This document shows positions 4,596 through 11,364 of a stretch of DNA of 34,727 nucleotides, piece after piece. Source of the stretch: a virus (lineage: Duplodnaviria > Heunggongvirae > Uroviricota > Caudoviricetes). Each line of letters opens with the position of its first letter. Within the stretch, counting starts at the first letter, position 1. Under the pieces are notes generated by a model. The model saw only the letters and a program-made list of their open reading frames with translations. It had not been told where the DNA came from and ran no database searches. The DNA is taken from IMG/VR virus record IMGVR_UViG_2585427750_000024. The stretch is one strand, 5' to 3'. A program made the position numbers and the translations under genes.

Positions 4596-4985
4596 ATGAT
4601 TGACGCTCATGACTTCACAAGATGGGTGCGCACACAGGACACCCGTCTGGCTCCCGTTCTTCAGGGATTATTTGATCTCTACATCCGTGGTCGTGACAAC
4701 AGAGCACGCACCACAAAACCGGAGAATGCAGACACCCTTTATTTCACAGTAGACGACTGCTACCGCGTGGACTTCACACCACACGGGCTGGCGTTGCACT
4801 GCCTGACACCACACGGCGAATCACTGCTGGCGTATTACGACTCCCCGGCCTCCATATTTGCGGCAATGCTGGCGCATCGCACTGCTGGCGGGTGTGCCTC
4901 GCTGATTGAATACTCCGCTGAATTTAACCGCCTTTCCGCCCTCTTCTCACAGGAGTGGCAGCGCGTGACGGGATACCAGCCATGA
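4596..4985 (+). CDS. Hypothetical protein translationally coupled to replication gene A
   Basis: 129 aa; stop TGA 4983-4985 overlaps the ATG 4982-4984 of A. Confidence 0.5.
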   Translation: MIDAHDFTRWVRTQDTRLAPVLQGLFDLYIRGRDNRARTTKPENADTLYFTVDDCYRVDFTPHGLALHCLTPHGESLLAYYDSPASIFAAMLAHRTAGGCASLIEYSAEFNRLSALFSQEWQRVTGYQP

Positions 4986-7822
4986 GTGCGTTTGCATGGA
5001 GCTGGAATGAACCACGGCCAGCCATTGATCCGGCCAGATTTACGGAGCGCAGGCAGGAAACTGAAACCGACCTGCAACGCGCCATCCGTTACTACCTTGA
5101 GGCAAACAAAAGGGCACAGGAAGAACAGGAAGCGAAGGAAGAAGCCTTTTTCGCACAATCCACCGTGGGTAAAAAACTCATGGCATCCCTTGAGGAAGCC
5201 GGACAGCGTGAAAAGCTGGCACAAAGCATCATCAGCAAGCGTCAGGCAACAGAACAAGACCCGGTGGCCCGTGCTTTTGCCACACTGAAGGTGCTTCCCG
5301 TTTATCTGCGTGAACCTCTGAGCCGCCACCTCTCTTTTCTGCGCAAGAAGCAGGAAGCCGATCGTCAGAAAGGCAAAAAGAGCTGGCAGGCTGAACGCTA
5401 CGCGCGCGGAACCCTGCGCAAAATATTCGAACGTCTGGACCGCACCGACAGCCGCTGGCTGACACCGGGCTATCGCTCCCTTGCCGGACGCGAACGCCTG
5501 GACGATTTGCTTTACCTGCCGCAGCTCAACAAACACCAGATACAGACGCTGGCCACCATGACGGCGGCGATGTTCAGTGGCACTTTTGAAAAACTCTGCG
5601 ATGGCTTTGGCGCGACCGATGGCGAGCTGACCATGGATGTAACGCTGAAGGCGTATCAGATGCTGGCCCGCATGGCGTTACACCTGCACGCTATGCCTCC
5701 ACATTATGACGCTCTGACAACAGACAAAGACCGGAGGAATGAACCGGACACGGAGCTGCTGCCGGGCGCAATCCTTCGCCTGACCTGTGCGGAATGGTGG
5801 AAACGCAAACTGTGGCTGTTACGTTGCGAGTGGAGAGAAGAACAACTCCGCGCCGCCTGTCTGGTTTCCAGAAAAACATCACCCTATCTGAGCCAGGACG
5901 CGTTAAGCGAGTTTCGCGCACAGCGCGAGAAAACACGCGATTTCCTGAAAAGTTTCATGCTGGAAAACGAAGACGGGTTCACGATTGATCTCGAGACAGT
6001 GTATTACGCGGGAGTAAGTAACCCGATTCACCGTAAGGCAGAAATGATGGCCACCATGAAGGGGCTGGAACTTCTGGCCGAAGCCCGTGGCGACAGAGCG
6101 GTGTTTCTGACTGTCACCTGCCCGTCAAAATACCACGCCACAACAGAGAACGGTCATCCGAATCCCAAATGGAACGGGGCCACCATGCGCGACTCCAGCG
6201 ATTACCTGGTTAACACGTTTTTTGCGGCGGTCCGCAAGAAACTGAACCGCGACGGCCTGCGCTGGTATGGCATCCGCACGGTGGAGCCTCACCATGACGG
6301 CACCGTGCACTGGCATATGATGGTCTTTGCTCATCCGGAAGAAATCGACACCATTGTGTCCCACACCCGCGATATTGCCATTCAGGAAGACCGCCACGAG
6401 CTGGGCAATGATATTACTCCGCGCTTTAAGGTGGAGTATGTCGACGGCTCAAAAGGCACGCCAACCAGCTACATCGCCACCTACATCGGAAAGAACCTGG
6501 ACAGCCGCGCCGTGGATGGCATCGACCCGAAAACGGGCAAGCCACGCGTTGACCACGAAACCGGAAAATCAATGGCCGAGAGCGTGGAACGCGCCATCGG
6601 CTGGGCACGCCTTCACCGGGTCCGCCAGTTCCAGTTCTTTGGCATCCCCTCCCGTCAGGTATGGCGTGAACTCCGCCGCCTTGCCAGCCAGATGGCACGC
6701 AACCCGGAAGGCCCACAACGGCTGAAGGATGATGCAATGGATGCGGTACTCGCTGCCGCTGATGCCGGGTGTTTTGCCACCTACATTGAGAAACAGGGCG
6801 GCGTACTTGTTCCACGCAAAGACTACCTGATTCGCACCGCCTACGACCTCGCAGATGAGCTGAACGATTACGGCGAACAGAGCGTACAGATTTACGGGAT
6901 CTGGTCACCACTCATCGGGGAATCCTCCCGTGTGTGCACGCACTCGGATAACTGGAAGCTGGTAAGACGTAAACCGGAAGCGGAAGACAGCACCCGCGAA
7001 AATGGTTTTGACCTTCAGGGCGGCCCTGCCGCCCCTTGGACTCGTGGCAATAACTGTCCCCGTGTACAGGAAACGGACAACAACGGGACAGAACAGCCGG
7101 AAGAAAGGCCAGCACCGTGGCCGCAGCTTCCTGACGGCGTTGACGTGAATGAATGGATGCGCTCACTGAAACGGCACGAACGCCGGGCGCTGATGCGTTC
7201 GCTGCGTGACAAACAGGCAAAAAACAGCAGTGATGAAATGCAGAACTGGACACAGAGCCGCAAACAGCCACGGCCTTTGCCTGATAACCACGAGTTACTC
7301 GCTAAAGAATGGCGGGAGTCTGCTGAATCTCTCGGCCTGCATATCGGTGAACAGCAGATGCAGCACCTGTTACGGGGCGGCAGTCTGTACGTTGACGGCA
7401 GCATCATTGCACCGCAGGGATTTGAAATTGTACGCAAACCAGATACCCGCCCGGACAGCCGAATCACGCAACTCTGGCAGCGCCTGAGCCGTAATCACGG
7501 CGTAAGCAGCACGGAGATCCGCCATAACCCGGTCGCCAGCTATCTGGAACAGCTGGGGGCATCAGACCCCGAAGCCGCCGCACACCTGGCATCCACACTT
7601 CAGCAGGACCAGAACACCATGAAAACCCCCGTTACCGTGCTTTCTGACATGCTGCGCGCCATCCGTGACGCAGTGCACGCACAGAGAATCAGTGAAACCA
7701 CTGAACGCGCCCACCGCAAAGCAGACCTGCTGCGGGGTAGCCTGACCAGTGGAAACAAAAAACAGACAGAAACGGGACTCACAAATCCCGTAAATGAGCA
7801 AAAAACGTGCCGCGATATATGA
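4955..7822 (+). CDS. A: Replication initiation protein A (rolling-circle HUH endonuclease), P2 gpA-like; probable true start 4982
   Basis: 955 aa; motifs TCPSKYH and EPHHDGTVHWHMMVF match recalled P2 A; ~200 aa longer than P2 A with a C-terminal extension. Confidence 0.9.
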   Translation: MAARDGIPAMSAFAWSWNEPRPAIDPARFTERRQETETDLQRAIRYYLEANKRAQEEQEAKEEAFFAQSTVGKKLMASLEEAGQREKLAQSIISKRQATEQDPVARAFATLKVLPVYLREPLSRHLSFLRKKQEADRQKGKKSWQAERYARGTLRKIFERLDRTDSRWLTPGYRSLAGRERLDDLLYLPQLNKHQIQTLATMTAAMFSGTFEKLCDGFGATDGELTMDVTLKAYQMLARMALHLHAMPPHYDALTTDKDRRNEPDTELLPGAILRLTCAEWWKRKLWLLRCEWREEQLRAACLVSRKTSPYLSQDALSEFRAQREKTRDFLKSFMLENEDGFTIDLETVYYAGVSNPIHRKAEMMATMKGLELLAEARGDRAVFLTVTCPSKYHATTENGHPNPKWNGATMRDSSDYLVNTFFAAVRKKLNRDGLRWYGIRTVEPHHDGTVHWHMMVFAHPEEIDTIVSHTRDIAIQEDRHELGNDITPRFKVEYVDGSKGTPTSYIATYIGKNLDSRAVDGIDPKTGKPRVDHETGKSMAESVERAIGWARLHRVRQFQFFGIPSRQVWRELRRLASQMARNPEGPQRLKDDAMDAVLAAADAGCFATYIEKQGGVLVPRKDYLIRTAYDLADELNDYGEQSVQIYGIWSPLIGESSRVCTHSDNWKLVRRKPEAEDSTRENGFDLQGGPAAPWTRGNNCPRVQETDNNGTEQPEERPAPWPQLPDGVDVNEWMRSLKRHERRALMRSLRDKQAKNSSDEMQNWTQSRKQPRPLPDNHELLAKEWRESAESLGLHIGEQQMQHLLRGGSLYVDGSIIAPQGFEIVRKPDTRPDSRITQLWQRLSRNHGVSSTEIRHNPVASYLEQLGASDPEAAAHLASTLQQDQNTMKTPVTVLSDMLRAIRDAVHAQRISETTERAHRKADLLRGSLTSGNKKQTETGLTNPVNEQKTCRDI

Positions 7823-7898
7823 AGCGCGCACAAAACAGGCAAAAGCGGGATTTAAAAATCCTGTAACCGATTAATTAATCAACACAAGGAAAAGCGAC

Positions 7899-8858
7899 AT
7901 GAAAATTTGTATCGACGACGGCTCCACCAACATCAAGCTGGCATGGACTGAGAACGGCGAACGCCGCAACGCCATCAGCCCGAACAGCTTCAAGTCGGAA
8001 TGGTCTGCGCCGTTCGGTGGCACGCAGCCCGCGAACTACATGCTTGATGGCGTGCGCTATGGTTTTGATCCGGTCAGCGATCGCTTTGTCCAGACGACCG
8101 ACACGCAATACCAGTACAGCGATGTGAATATAATTGCCATTCATCACGCGCTGGTCAAATCAGGCATCACACCACAGGAAGTGGATGTGGTTGTCACCCT
8201 GCCACTGAGCGAGTATTTCGATACAAACGCACAGCCGGACATGGCCAACATCAACCGCAAAAAAGCGAACGTCATGCGCCCGGTGGAGTACCAGAACGGC
8301 GAAGCATTCACTATCCGTAACGTACGGGTTATGCCTGAATCCATTCCGGCTGGCTTTAAGGCACTGGCTGACATGAGTCCGTTTGAATCCCTGCTGATTG
8401 TGGATTTGGGCGGAACCACTCTGGATGTGGCAAAGGTTCAGGGGCAACTGGCAGGTATCAGCCAGGTGTTTTGCGATCCACACGTGGGCGTTTCTCTGAT
8501 GGCCGATGCCGTACTGTCGGTGATGGCCACTAACGGTATGCGCACCAGTCACCACATCGCCAATACCATTATCGAACATCGCCATGATGAAGCCTGGCTG
8601 CGCCAGCACATCCACAATGACGCGCATTACGCCAGCCTGATGGCGGTTATTCGTGAAAAGGAAGAAACACTGAAACAACGCGTGATCCGCGCGCTGGCGG
8701 GTTTTTCGGGTTACGGGCGGGTGATGGTTGTCGGTGGAGGGGCGGAGATTGTGGCACCCGCTATCCGCGAAGCCTGCGGAGTTAATGCGACTTTCATCGC
8801 GGACGGGGTGCCACAGTTTGCTCTGGTTAATGGGCTGTACGCAATGGACAAGGAGTAA
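7899..8858 (+). CDS. parM: ParM/StbA-like actin-like segregation ATPase (type II partition)
   Basis: 319 aa; MKICIDDGSTNIKLAW, ISPNSFK.EW, VMPESIPAG, IVDLGGTTLD, VMVVGGGAE, ALVNGLY all align with recalled plasmid R1 ParM. Confidence 0.85.
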   Translation: MKICIDDGSTNIKLAWTENGERRNAISPNSFKSEWSAPFGGTQPANYMLDGVRYGFDPVSDRFVQTTDTQYQYSDVNIIAIHHALVKSGITPQEVDVVVTLPLSEYFDTNAQPDMANINRKKANVMRPVEYQNGEAFTIRNVRVMPESIPAGFKALADMSPFESLLIVDLGGTTLDVAKVQGQLAGISQVFCDPHVGVSLMADAVLSVMATNGMRTSHHIANTIIEHRHDEAWLRQHIHNDAHYASLMAVIREKEETLKQRVIRALAGFSGYGRVMVVGGGAEIVAPAIREACGVNATFIADGVPQFALVNGLYAMDKE

Positions 8859-8862
8859 ACCA

Positions 8863-9174
8863 ATGACGACTCCAACCAGACGGATAAGTTTCTATCTGAA
8901 GCCCACCGCCGTCAAGAACGAAGGAGAAGCATGCGCCTGGCTGGACAGCCTTACACCAGAAGCCCGCAAAAGCGGCCAACGCGTGGCTTTTCTGGCCGGG
9001 CTGGCACTTCTGAAAATGAATCCGGCAGAGGCTTATCGACTGGCTGCATGGGCTGGTGATGAAGCGTTATCAGTGACACAAACCAGGACAGAACGCCCCG
9101 CATCACAGCCAGTATCAACCGCACAGATAACCAGTCAGATGGCCGGAAATATCCGGGCGTTATTTCCTGAATAA
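8863..9174 (+). CDS. parR: ParR/StbB-like centromere-binding adaptor
   Basis: ATG at 8863, in frame with track ORF 8728..9174, 4 nt after the parM stop; RISFYLKP...LDSLTPEARKSGQRVAFLAGLAL and C-terminal IRALFPE resemble recalled R1 ParR. Confidence 0.7.
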   Translation: MTTPTRRISFYLKPTAVKNEGEACAWLDSLTPEARKSGQRVAFLAGLALLKMNPAEAYRLAAWAGDEALSVTQTRTERPASQPVSTAQITSQMAGNIRALFPE

Positions 9175-9182
9175 CACAACAT

Positions 9183-9200
9183 CAGGGCGAGTTCGCCCTG
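9183..9200. repeat. Palindromic element CAGGGCG-AGTT-CGCCCTG, copy 1, 3' of parR
   Basis: 7-bp perfect inverted repeat read directly; no T-tract; same arms recur at 9841-9866. Confidence 0.5.
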
Positions 9201-9237
9201 CTCTCCACCTCAGAACATAAACAAGGAGAACGACTTA

Positions 9238-9828
9238 ATGAGCGAAATCAACTATCAGGCATTACGTGAACGTTATTCACCTGTGCCAGTACCGAAATGC
9301 CCTATTTGCGGCGAGGAAATGTCAATTCAGCGAATATCTGGAGCACAGGTTGTTTATGCCTGCTCCGGTTATGGTGATGATGGAGATTTCAAAATTGGCC
9401 AAACTCTTGCCGACGAACATTATGAAAAATCACGCGTAACAGTGTTGGATGTCGGGGATCCTGAAGTATTGGCGCTACTTGATTGGCTGGAAACCAAAGA
9501 CAACCGAATCGCTGAACTGGAAAAAATCGCCACTGACTATGCACTTAAATTCCAGAAAGCACAGGACGCATTAAAGTATGCCGCTTTGCTGCATAGCAGG
9601 ACGGCGCAACAAACAAATAATTTTGCAGTATCGCTTCCGGACATAAGCGAATATTTCATTAATGACGTATTTCAGCCCTTGCGATACGAGCGGGATGTTG
9701 AAAGAGCCATCATAAAGGCTGGCGGAAAAGCATTGTGGCAGGAGAAACACGAGGACAGAACGCATCAGTCCTGCGATGTAAATCGTGGATGGTTTAGCCC
9801 ACTGACGACAGATAAAAATAACACCTGA
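9238..9828 (+). CDS. Hypothetical protein with N-terminal Zn-ribbon-like CxxC...C and central coiled-coil-like region
   Basis: 196 aa; CPICGEEM...YAC; RBS AAGGAG upstream; located in the hotspot between A and cos. Confidence 0.55.
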   Translation: MSEINYQALRERYSPVPVPKCPICGEEMSIQRISGAQVVYACSGYGDDGDFKIGQTLADEHYEKSRVTVLDVGDPEVLALLDWLETKDNRIAELEKIATDYALKFQKAQDALKYAALLHSRTAQQTNNFAVSLPDISEYFINDVFQPLRYERDVERAIIKAGGKALWQEKHEDRTHQSCDVNRGWFSPLTTDKNNT

Positions 9829-9840
9829 TCCCCCTCAAAC

Positions 9841-9866
9841 CAGGGCGATAATCGCGCATCGCCCTG
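9841..9866. repeat. Palindromic element CAGGGCGAT-N8-ATCGCCCTG, copy 2, 3' of the 196-aa ORF
   Basis: 9-bp inverted repeat with the same arm sequence as 9183-9200, followed by CTGC in both cases. Confidence 0.5.
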
Positions 9867-10266
9867 CTGCACAATAGTGCACAAGTTTGCACAATTTTTT
9901 TGAACGACTTTTTACCCTTCCGGCCCGCATGGCGGCTGGATCCGTCAAGGATCCGTGCGTGCACAAAAAAACGCGCTTTTTCTGCGCGCAGGTGACGGGG
10001 GAACAGCCCGCGTTTCAGGGGGTAAATAGCATCCCCTGAACGATGTCGCAGCGACACAACAGAATGGCTGTATTTCTCACGCTGAGCGTGAAAAAGACGT
10101 GAGGGCTTTTGATTTGATGGGTGGCAGATAAGGCCGTCAAAATCGCACTGAGGCGGCGAGAACATGCAGTCAACGCGGTGGGATTGCGTAAGAGTCTGAC
10201 CGCCGATGATGACAATAAGCAGAAAAGCGTCGTGAAATTATCTGATTGATACAGGAGCTGGAGAGT

Positions 10267-10291
10267 CGGGGCATAAATTTTTTATGCCCCG
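10267..10291 (-). terminator. Hairpin 3' of Q (CGGGGCATAAA-TTT-TTTATGCCCCG), candidate terminator
   Basis: 11-bp perfect inverted repeat with GC-rich base and A/T-rich loop, 27 bp downstream of the Q stop; no long U-tract after the stem. Confidence 0.4.
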
Positions 10292-10317
10292 GCGAAGCAG
10301 CAGACAAGCGAAGCGCG

Positions 10318-11364
10318 TCAGGATGTGGGCTGGGTATCTAGCAGTGCGTAAGGGTTAAAGCGGATCACCTCTTCGCCAAGCCAGTCATTGATGTGCTTCA
10401 TGGCCTCCATGACGGGCATCAGCTCGTTAATTGCGTAAACCCGCGCGGCCTTCTCCACATCACCAAACGCACTTTTTTCGCCCGGCATCGCCCCCATCAG
10501 TTGCGGCGGAACGCGGTGCGCAGCCAGCACATCATCACGGGATGCCGCCTTAACATTCATGAACTCATCCTTTGCAGTGATCTGCTGGAACGGCAAAATT
10601 TGCACACCTTCTTTGCCCCCGTTGGGCGCATGGATGAGTACGTTTTTAAACGCACCACCACCACGCGCGCCCTGTAACGTTTCTTTCAGGGAGTCCATGC
10701 TTTCGCGGTTTACCTGCGCTGCACCGATGTAGATGATGCACCCGGCGTGGGATCCGTTGTCGTAGTACAGTTTTCTGAACATGTCCGCCGAATGAGAAAG
10801 GCTGGCCGAGAGTAATGCGCCAAGATATTCCGGCATGCCGTAGATTTCCTGGTTAATATCCGGATTCATCAGGTGGCACACTTTGCCAGGGCGAAACTGG
10901 AACGCGTCCTTGCCATCCTGCACATACCACCATGATTCAAGATCGCTTCCGCGTCGCATGTATTTCGCCAGGGCGTGCCGTAATTTAAGCGGTTCGCCGA
11001 GCATATTGCTTCTAAGCTCAAGGAATGCGTTACCGAACACAAACCAGTCCAGCGCCAGCGCCGAGAAATCCTGCCGGGAAAGCAGCGGGTGCGGGATGTA
11101 GCAACCGAGTAATACATTGCGCTTAAAGTAAAGCGCAGACTGATGCCAGGACGTTTGCCGGGCTGCTCTTGCCAGACCGTACCAGTCCACCGGGGTTTCA
11201 TACCACCGTCCGTTATCAGCACAGTACATATTGTCCAGCAGGTCATGCCCGGTCAGGCGATAAGGACCATCAAATGTGAATGCACTGAGCGATGATTCTT
11301 TCCTGAGCGCATCAGCGAGATCAATGCGTGAACTCATGCGCACTTTTTTATTTTTTCTGCTCAT
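10318..11364 (-). CDS. Q: Portal protein, P2 gpQ-like
   Basis: 348 aa; size and position match P2 Q, adjacent to and co-oriented with the terminase gene. Confidence 0.85.
   Translation of the reverse strand: MSRKNKKVRMSSRIDLADALRKESSLSAFTFDGPYRLTGHDLLDNMYCADNGRWYETPVDWYGLARAARQTSWHQSALYFKRNVLLGCYIPHPLLSRQDFSALALDWFVFGNAFLELRSNMLGEPLKLRHALAKYMRRGSDLESWWYVQDGKDAFQFRPGKVCHLMNPDINQEIYGMPEYLGALLSASLSHSADMFRKLYYDNGSHAGCIIYIGAAQVNRESMDSLKETLQGARGGGAFKNVLIHAPNGGKEGVQILPFQQITAKDEFMNVKAASRDDVLAAHRVPPQLMGAMPGEKSAFGDVEKAARVYAINELMPVMEAMKHINDWLGEEVIRFNPYALLDTQPTS

Follow-up and report, generated by a model that had tools for sequence, protein, structure and literature searches.

In the prophage DNA analysed here, two palindromes with the same arms, lying on either side of a single cargo gene, are, with a probability that we put at about one half, duplicated copies of one transcript stem-loop that belongs to the backbone of P88-like (Xuanwuvirus) phages within the P2 family and whose function would be exerted at the ends of messages. 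The window, that is, the whole stretch of 34,727 nucleotides (nt) catalogued as IMG/VR virus record IMGVR_UViG_2585427750_000024, is a P88-like prophage (genus Xuanwuvirus, Peduoviridae, P2 family); the palindromes, named here H1 (9183-9200) and H2 (9841-9866), enclose an open reading frame (ORF) of 196 amino acids (aa) and are placed between the partition genes parM and parR (together, parMR) and a set of TGCACAA repeats close to cos. According to the proposed history, the cargo-less state would have a single stem-loop between the parR stop and these cos-proximal repeats, and the hairpin would have been duplicated when a cargo recombined in, the identical arms of H1 and H2 reflecting common descent and not a dedicated recombinase site.

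Two hairpins with common arms

H1, the left stem-loop, is part of the backbone and lies at the parR 3' end; its sequence is CAGGGCG-AGTT-CGCCCTG (geometry 7+4+7), and it starts 8 nt past the parR stop (TAA, 9172-9174) and ends 37 nt ahead of the cargo ATG (9238). H2, the right stem-loop, reads CAGGGCGAT-AATCGCGC-ATCGCCCTG (that is, CAGGGCGAT-N8-ATCGCCCTG; geometry 9+8+9), starts 12 nt past the stop of the cargo ORF (TGA, 9826-9828) and, ending 1 nt ahead of the first TGCACAA (9868), adjoins the conserved right border; neither element is assigned to a strand. An initial annotation of the same DNA had placed both palindromes correctly, and they are indeed the only two sites of the form CAGGGCG-N(1-12)-CGCCCTG in 34.7 kb, not even one being present in 100 dinucleotide-preserving shuffles; its statement that the arms are followed by CTGC holds for H2 but not for H1, which continues with CTCT, only CT being common to the two. 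Segments of 76 and 86 nt around H1 and H2 have predicted folding energies of -18.1 and -22.5 kcal/mol, respectively (z about -2.8 and -2.9), and in each of them the hairpin dominates the local fold. The spacers are unlike in length and sequence (4 nt versus 8 nt), and a local alignment of the two regions outside the arms is not significant. An extended homology of the flanks, via the 8-mer AATAACAC (9170 and 9817), was considered and dropped, this 8-mer occurring three times in the window against about one expected (a count equalled by 8 of 100 shuffles) and recurring in too few cargo classes to matter; in an isolated case, locus L102, the left flank resembles the upstream flank of H2 (1 of 500 shuffles).

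That two unrelated GC-rich hairpins share their arms by coincidence could be argued from the mild enrichment of the heptamer CAGGGCG (16 sites in the phage against 5.7 expected) and from the observation that the same type of 18-mer arises by chance in GC-rich phage coding sequences; the H1-type 18-mers present elsewhere in IMG/VR look like such chance matches in GC-rich viral (coding) sequence. However, the shuffles contain no palindrome of this kind, both copies are kept at the same two positions in many relatives, and the single copy of an empty site (see below) links H1 to H2, so that coincidence has a negligible likelihood and is effectively refuted. The remaining CAGGGCG sites of the window, two in gpA included, show neither a palindrome nor a common context, and the H2-type pattern is found in IMG/VR only at the Xuanwuvirus right border, besides unrelated chance matches. 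A dispersed host repeat resembling repetitive extragenic palindromic (REP) sequences or bacterial interspersed mosaic elements (BIME), an objection already foreseen in the initial annotation, was rejected: the window has two copies, and those in IMG/VR, chance matches aside, are confined to homologous positions.

With ParR as guide, related loci were gathered from IMG/VR as well as from annotated phage records, genomes and assemblies, and the interval from the parR stop to the TGCACAA repeats was extracted from 94 of them, a few being one contig counted twice; scanning genomes of the species with ParR gave only 3 loci, and more distant relatives were reached by protein search and contig look-ups. 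The 94 loci (referred to by L numbers where needed) represent 27 cargo arrangements, from 0.5 to 3.7 kb, with cargo on either strand. In 20 of the 27, regardless of the identity or strand of the cargo, H1 is found 8 nt past the stop of parR, and H2, in relatives, always lies directly against TGCACAA, mostly after Ea22-like genes and also after an unrelated two-gene cargo (L102); the hairpin is present on the left only in 15 arrangements, on the right only in 2, on both sides in 5 and on neither in 5, while multi-gene cargos (3-6 genes) have hairpins only at their outer ends, with no copies between ORFs. The earlier description of the palindromes as cassette boundaries or scars is thus to be kept in part: they are the exact edges of the variable region (parR to TGCACAA), and in L102 they enclose an unrelated cargo, but both copies occur in only five arrangements and none is found between genes. 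The L102-type cargo consists of a 124-aa protein without family and of a winged-helix HVO_A0114/MarR-like protein (125 aa); in L102, L094, L045 and L048, this gene pair, which might be toxin-antitoxin-like or regulatory, is enclosed by a compensated H1 (CAGGGCA..TGCCCTG) and by H2.

The common origin of the two copies is suggested by the Hafnia-type loci L247 and L248 (ParR 72% identical), whose hotspot is empty and reads parR-TAA-AACATTGT-CAGGGCGAT-AATCATGT-ATCGCCCTG-C-TGCACGATAG, the 3' side of the hairpin continuing as C-TGCACGATAGCGCACAA at the repeat border. This single hairpin has the arms and loop length of H2, the 8-nt offset from parR of H1 and the junction to the repeats of H2; since an empty site has one hairpin, H1 and H2 are most simply explained as two copies of one backbone element, H1 in the window retaining the left (parR-side) flank and H2 the right (cos-side) flank, and "insertion scar or duplicated boundary" is a fair description of the pair. 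The empty hotspot of L247 and L248 (about 200 nt after the parR stop), with its hairpin located directly between parR and TGCACAA-type repeats, offers a natural reference for the empty site in P88-like phages.

Comparison of the hairpins among relatives indicates that the H1 loop takes at least six forms (AGTT, CATC, TATT, TATC, AACT, GGTT) with the stem kept, and that the H2 stem core is invariant, changes being limited to the loop and the terminal pair. Double changes keep the pairing of H1 in L094 (CAGGGCA/TGCCCTG) and in the L066 type (CGGGGTG/CGCCCCG); in L257 (ParR 68% identical) the hairpin CAGAGCGAG-AGT-CTCGCTCTG has two compensated pairs relative to CAGGGCGAT/ATCGCCCTG; single-sided changes that preserve pairing, through a G.U on the + strand only, are represented by CGTCCTG in L121 and by TAGGGCG in H2 variants. 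Altogether, 88.8% of the cells in the pair count are paired and 3 pairs are altered on both sides. Such compensatory changes point to selection on the hairpin structure.

The same comparison bears on the proposal that one sequence-specific protein of phage or host, for example a regulator of the partition/packaging region, uses the palindromes as operators in double-stranded DNA; indeed, the stem hardly varies among relatives from E. coli, Salmonella and Hafnia, unlike loop and flanks, and both copies adjoin partition genes and cos-proximal repeats. Nevertheless, the centre-to-centre distance of the half-sites amounts to about 11 bp for H1, 17 bp for H2 and 12 bp for L257, a strong variation that a hairpin tolerates and that a dimeric DNA binder would not; moreover, the compensatory arm changes preserve pairing and not sequence, and the parM promoter region has no additional copy of the palindrome. 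An operator is in our opinion highly improbable, and the differing arm spacing argues in the same way against the earlier suggestion of binding sites for one factor, in so far as a dimeric DNA binder is meant.

A number of observations nonetheless weigh against a duplicated stem-loop maintained for its structure. The covariation signal is modest, as most of the sequences are close relatives, and singleton variants that break a pair occur in L029, L075 and L076; the stems are almost invariant within E. coli and the H2 stem is identical in Hafnia at ~72% ParR identity, a near-invariance that would equally fit sequence-specific recognition; in ParR relatives at 56-64% identity the hairpin is degenerate or missing; H2 has no convincing U-tail on either strand; finally, the L116 type, with its 5'-truncated Ea22 gene, implies that some single-hairpin types may derive from a double-hairpin type, against the reverse order.

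Predicted role in transcription and the recombination alternative

As in intrinsic terminators, both H1 and H2 are stable, GC-rich stem-loops just 3' of a gene; neither is followed by a U-rich tract on the + strand, the tails being CUCUCCAC after H1 and CUGCACAA after H2, and the initial annotation was right, as far as this strand is concerned, in not considering them classic intrinsic terminators. Read on the - strand, H1 has the tail AUGUUGUGUU and was flagged as terminator-like in a terminator scan, this being the sole orientation of H1 or H2 to pass; no Rfam covariance model gave a match at E <= 1 to either strand of 7700-10400. The most fitting description of H2 is a 3' stem-loop of putative effect; a weak + strand terminator-like site, GTGCACAAGTTTGCAC+AATTTTTTTG (A2T7), is located just 3' of it, in the right border.

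In the stem-loop reading, H1 would mark and protect the 3' end of the parMR message and H2 would do likewise for the cargo message, the two hairpins insulating these messages from each other and being, presumably, leaky in the rightward direction. Owing to the lack of a + strand U-tract at H1, partial read-through from parMR into a promoter-less cargo may be envisaged. A scan of the + strand for sigma-70-like promoters detected none in 7700-10400, the 63 nt that separate parR from the cargo ATG included; the cargo leader (9201-9237, + strand; Shine-Dalgarno AAGGAGA at 9223-9229) contains the sequence GAACATAAACAAGG, which, with its Shine-Dalgarno, is common to P88-type cargos and to different first cargo genes. 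Given the shared leader and the lack of a promoter-like site between parR and the start codon, the cargo is probably read through from parMR across H1. The U-rich tail of H1 on the - strand could, in turn, stop antisense transcription from opposite-strand cargos: in types L032 and L074 the end of a - strand cargo gene lies 17-38 nt from H1 and, taken together with the terminator score on that strand, this makes H1 look like a one-way barrier shielding parMR. It may be added that CUCUCC (9201-9206), right after H1, can pair with the Shine-Dalgarno GGAGA (9225-9229) in the predicted fold, and could weakly mask the translation start of the cargo; this pairing is not kept in P88-type leaders.

The same role may be considered from what replaces the hairpins in other arrangements. 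Arrangements that lack the CAGGGCG hairpin after parR often have another stable hairpin in its place (L254, L066, L002), and + strand cargo operons nearly always have a hairpin or a canonical terminator exactly at the position of H2; canonical terminators occupy this spot in other + strand cargos, as exemplified by AAAGCGCC-TCAG-GGCGCTTTTTG and, in the P88 type, by AAACGCCCT-CTTCC-AGGGCGTTT-ATTT. The replacement hairpins after parR and the hairpin at the H2 spot suggest a transcript-level need at both places, which the empty site would meet with one hairpin and the cargo-bearing sites with two.

The alternative, that the cargo enters or leaves by recombination at the hairpin, one copy being left on each side, could take different routes, namely, a tyrosine-recombinase-type core, a folded single-strand hairpin (as for integron attC or the CTX phage), or hairpin-induced breaks and template switching. 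In its favour, the architecture is that expected from integration at a palindromic site, with one copy in the empty state and, in the presence of cargo, two direct copies each having one original flank; the 9+8+9 geometry of H2 is similar to that of recombinase core sites such as loxP, FRT and dif. In L069 a P88-type loop is joined to a window-type downstream flank, and the H1 loop, AGTT in the window (9190-9193), is replaced in L074 by its exact reverse complement, AACT, a flip of the kind typical of intrastrand template switching or of recombination across a palindrome. Furthermore, in L124 (E. coli TUM9757, NZ_CP128931.1 2572339-2573258) a nearly empty hotspot reflects a precise deletion with two 11-bp direct repeats, CATCAGGGCGC, as its end points; the H1 5' arm is the first of these, and the second lies inside a cargo gene. 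It must also be considered that the mechanism by which cargo is exchanged in P2 hotspots has been declared unknown (PMC9122126, PMC13586616).

Against recombination at the hairpin, the predicted H1xH2 junction, a single hybrid hairpin, is absent from 5,426 complete E. coli genomes and from IMG/VR; a scan of Joint Genome Institute (JGI) metagenomes was empty as well, with a pattern (AATAA, at least 4 nt, hairpin) that skips the 3-nt spacing of the junction. Three IMG/VR matches of the junction search are of the L032 type, in which TGCACAA follows H1 by coincidence or old homology, the similarity of this type to the right border being not significant (38 of 1000 shuffles). A tyrosine-recombinase core should have arms around a 6-8 bp spacer identical in the two partners; the 7+4+7 and 9+8+9 geometries, with spacers varying among relatives, do not correspond to it, and spacers unequal in both length and sequence are a poor fit to a recent conservative site-specific exchange. 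Moreover, more than half of the arrangements (15/27) have the left copy only, multi-gene cargos have no internal copies, no recombinase gene is encoded from gpA to the portal gene (4955-11364), and ordinary homologous or microhomology recombination, acting on the last bases conserved beside the variable region, would be expected to leave such footprints just as well. We therefore consider recombination at the hairpin unlikely. More doubtful still is the specific proposal that the hairpin is the true entry point for cargo in P88-like phages, where recombination at the folded or cruciform hairpin would duplicate it on both sides; such a capture might be the work of the phage's HUH-type nuclease gpA on single-stranded intermediates of rolling-circle replication, of a tyrosine recombinase, or of a hairpin-induced break followed by template switching. 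If true, hairpin capture would represent a concrete mechanism for the reloading of P2-family defence hotspots.

The cargo protein and its hotspot

The cargo ORF (9238-9828, + strand) encodes an Ead/Ea22-like protein that has a Cys/His module at its N-terminus, then a long coiled coil and finally a small domain at the C-terminus, and contains the CPICGEEM...YAC motif as originally described. The protein matches PF13935 (Ead_Ea22) over residues 2-140 (E 2.4e-31, 109.6 bits, cut-off 27) and is named ead/Ea22-like in RefSeq; a protein search yielded 531 homologues, of which the 120 listed all have PF13935, the source-named ones among these 120 being almost all ead/Ea22-like. Their alignment reveals a common N-terminal module (~residues 10-72), a coiled coil and then several alternative C-terminal domains, and residues C21, C24, C42 and H61 are kept wherever the N-terminal module occurs. 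Of the zinc-ribbon-like N-terminus initially proposed, the conserved Cys/His module is retained, but matches to zinc-ribbon profiles are weak (E 0.01-0.1, all below threshold); the proposed coiled coil corresponds to one long helix at 75-122 in the AlphaFold model, whose mean predicted local distance difference test (pLDDT) is a mediocre 64. A central coiled coil and a modular C-terminal domain are as expected in the Ead/Ea22 family. Remote homology search and structure prediction, recommended at the outset, led to this family in the first case and, in the second, to no Foldseek match of the model in the PDB below E = 2; a PDB sequence search with the protein found no relative.

Judging from its family match, the cargo is an ordinary Ead/Ea22-like phage protein, that is, a member of a known family of partly understood function. 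The Ea22 proteins of lambda and of Shiga toxin (Stx) phages, which have a modular layout with an N-terminal domain and a coiled coil, favour lysogeny (PMC7093339, PMC10834534), a pro-lysogenic function being documented for the ea22 of lambda and Phi24B (PMC7093339). No PADLOC defence model matches the cargo at E <= 1, nothing in the analysis indicates an anti-phage gene, and no defence assignment is made. An Ea22-like variant, protein P0021 (199 aa), has lost its stop codon and reads through H2 and the TGCACAA repeats, with the tail ...NNTCSPSNQGDNRASPFCTIVHKFAQFF. In phage P88 itself (L001, 1689-2021) the first cargo gene encodes a C4 zinc finger of the ClpX type (PF06689, E 8e-18) but lacks the ATPase, and may provide a decoy or an adaptor for ClpX substrates.

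The 2.5 kb around the palindromes are 100% identical to many chromosomes of Stx-producing E. coli (STEC) O26, O103 and O111, among them O26:H11 11368 and O103 RM8385, and phage P88 and its relatives align on either flank of the cargo, not through it. The order of the elements is gpA-like gene, parM, parR, H1, cargo, H2, TGCACAA x3, a cos-proximal non-coding stretch and, on the opposite strand, the portal gene. The gpA-like replication nuclease (4955-7822) lies upstream of parMR; parM (7899-8858, + strand), a backbone gene, encodes an actin-like plasmid-segregation ATPase (PF06406 StbA_N, E 3.7e-82; PF21523, E 1.3e-68), and parR (8863-9174, + strand), the final conserved gene ahead of the variable region, a parR/StbB-like partition adaptor (PF10784 Plasmid_stab_B, E 3.1e-23; phrog_2515, E 1.7e-57). 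The gpQ-like portal gene (10318-11364, - strand), the first conserved gene past the cos-proximal region, owes its assignment to P88 and to identical E. coli records, where it is annotated as portal; no genes other than parM, parR and the cargo lie between it and gpA. A perfect palindrome, GGATTT-AA-AAATCC, occurs at 7848-7861 within the 76-nt gap between gpA and parM, and is a candidate operator of the parMR promoter.

By its position, the locus is the counterpart of the cos-proximal hotspot that Rousset et al. 2022 (PMC9122126) delimited from gpA to gpQ in P2-like phages and that is recognised as a reservoir of anti-phage systems: it occupies the gpA-gpQ interval beside cos, and its content varies among relatives, as testified by the 27 arrangements found in the 94 loci. 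The initial placement in a known P2 anti-phage hotspot is thus correct as to location, though the cargo itself matches no defence model. Neither of two papers on P2 hotspots (PMC9122126, PMC13586616) mentions hairpins, palindromes or terminators at the borders. On the right, all relatives converge at a border (9868-9901, + strand) made of three TGCACAA copies in 10-bp phase (9868-9894) and then T7; GCACAA is found at 9869, 9879, 9889 and 9961, a fourth copy of the repeat lying about 70 bp past the triple array (9960-9966). In every relative, the Hafnia type included, this invariant array limits the variable region on the right, and it could be a candidate terminase recognition (cosB-like) array or a candidate ParR centromere; mapping of cos by similarity to P2 aligned only a 20-nt patch adjoining P2 cosL. 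Within the cos-proximal region, a canonical terminator, GCGCGCAGAAAAAGCGCGT+T7, is present on the - strand at 9971-9989, and a perfect palindrome with 11-bp arms, CGGGGCATAAA/TTTATGCCCCG, is found at 10267-10291, 27 nt beyond the portal stop and without a U-tail on the portal strand. In Salmonella enterica CP191473.1 (L122), an additional 187-aa ORF (6468-7031) lies between the cos-proximal region and the portal gene, in a second small variable spot across cos where the window has non-coding DNA.

Altogether, the initial interpretation is partly supported: the palindromes do mark boundaries and may plausibly be the scar of a duplication, but they are not general cassette sites and do not look like a new type of mobile cassette, and the cargo is of a known family with no match to defence models. 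If the hairpins are merely transcript-end structures, which is the most likely view, the finding belongs to routine phage anatomy. It provides, nonetheless, borders at base-pair resolution for the P88-like hotspot, the post-parR stem-loop on the left and the TGCACAA repeats on the right, which are practical for automatic cargo delimitation; alleles are available of both the empty site with one stem-loop and the cargo with a stem-loop on both sides, and two small leads can be tested, namely, expression of a promoter-less cargo via parMR read-through and recombination at the border.

Comparison with known systems

With the Ea22 proteins of lambda and Stx phages the cargo shares the Pfam Ead_Ea22 match, an N-terminal domain with beta-strands followed by a coiled coil, and a variable, modular C-terminus; unlike them, it sits beside cos in a P2-family phage and not in the exo-xis region, it has no terminal K/RGE motif, and its C-terminal domain is unrelated to the solved one of lambda, as judged from the lack of a PDB sequence match.

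Integron attC sites, pdif sites (XerC/D) and other palindromic cassette sites resemble the present case in that palindromes lie on either side of a gene that can be swapped and that the empty site has a single copy. They differ in several respects: in attC cassettes a site is expected at the end of every cassette, whereas here the hairpins are found at outer ends only, no site separates the genes of multi-gene cargos, the right copy is absent in 15 of 27 arrangements and most arrangements have one copy only; a dedicated integrase and excised cassettes are also expected, whereas between gpA and the portal gene there are only parM, parR and the cargo, with no integron integrase or other recombinase gene, the H1 and H2 spacers are unequal, and the excision product (the junction) was not found in the 5,426 E. 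coli genomes or in IMG/VR. An integron-like array is ruled out by the absence of internal copies and by the census.

As in the cos-proximal defence hotspot of P2 (PMC9122126), the interval from the gpA-like gene to gpQ, by cos, is highly variable between close relatives; in P88-like phages, however, parMR is interposed between gpA and the hotspot, and the cargo found here corresponds to none of the defence models.

Functionally, the closest analogues are the stem-loops at the ends of operons or between cistrons, that is, intrinsic terminators, mRNA-stabilising hairpins at 3' ends, terminators delimiting phage morons and the tQ terminator annotated in P2. H1 and H2 differ from these in having no U-tract on the strand of the preceding genes, in the use of the same arm sequence twice and in the unusual conservation of the stem; they are like them in being GC-rich, in starting a few nt past a stop codon, in occupying the slot where sister cargos have canonical terminators and, for H1, in the U-rich tail on the - strand.

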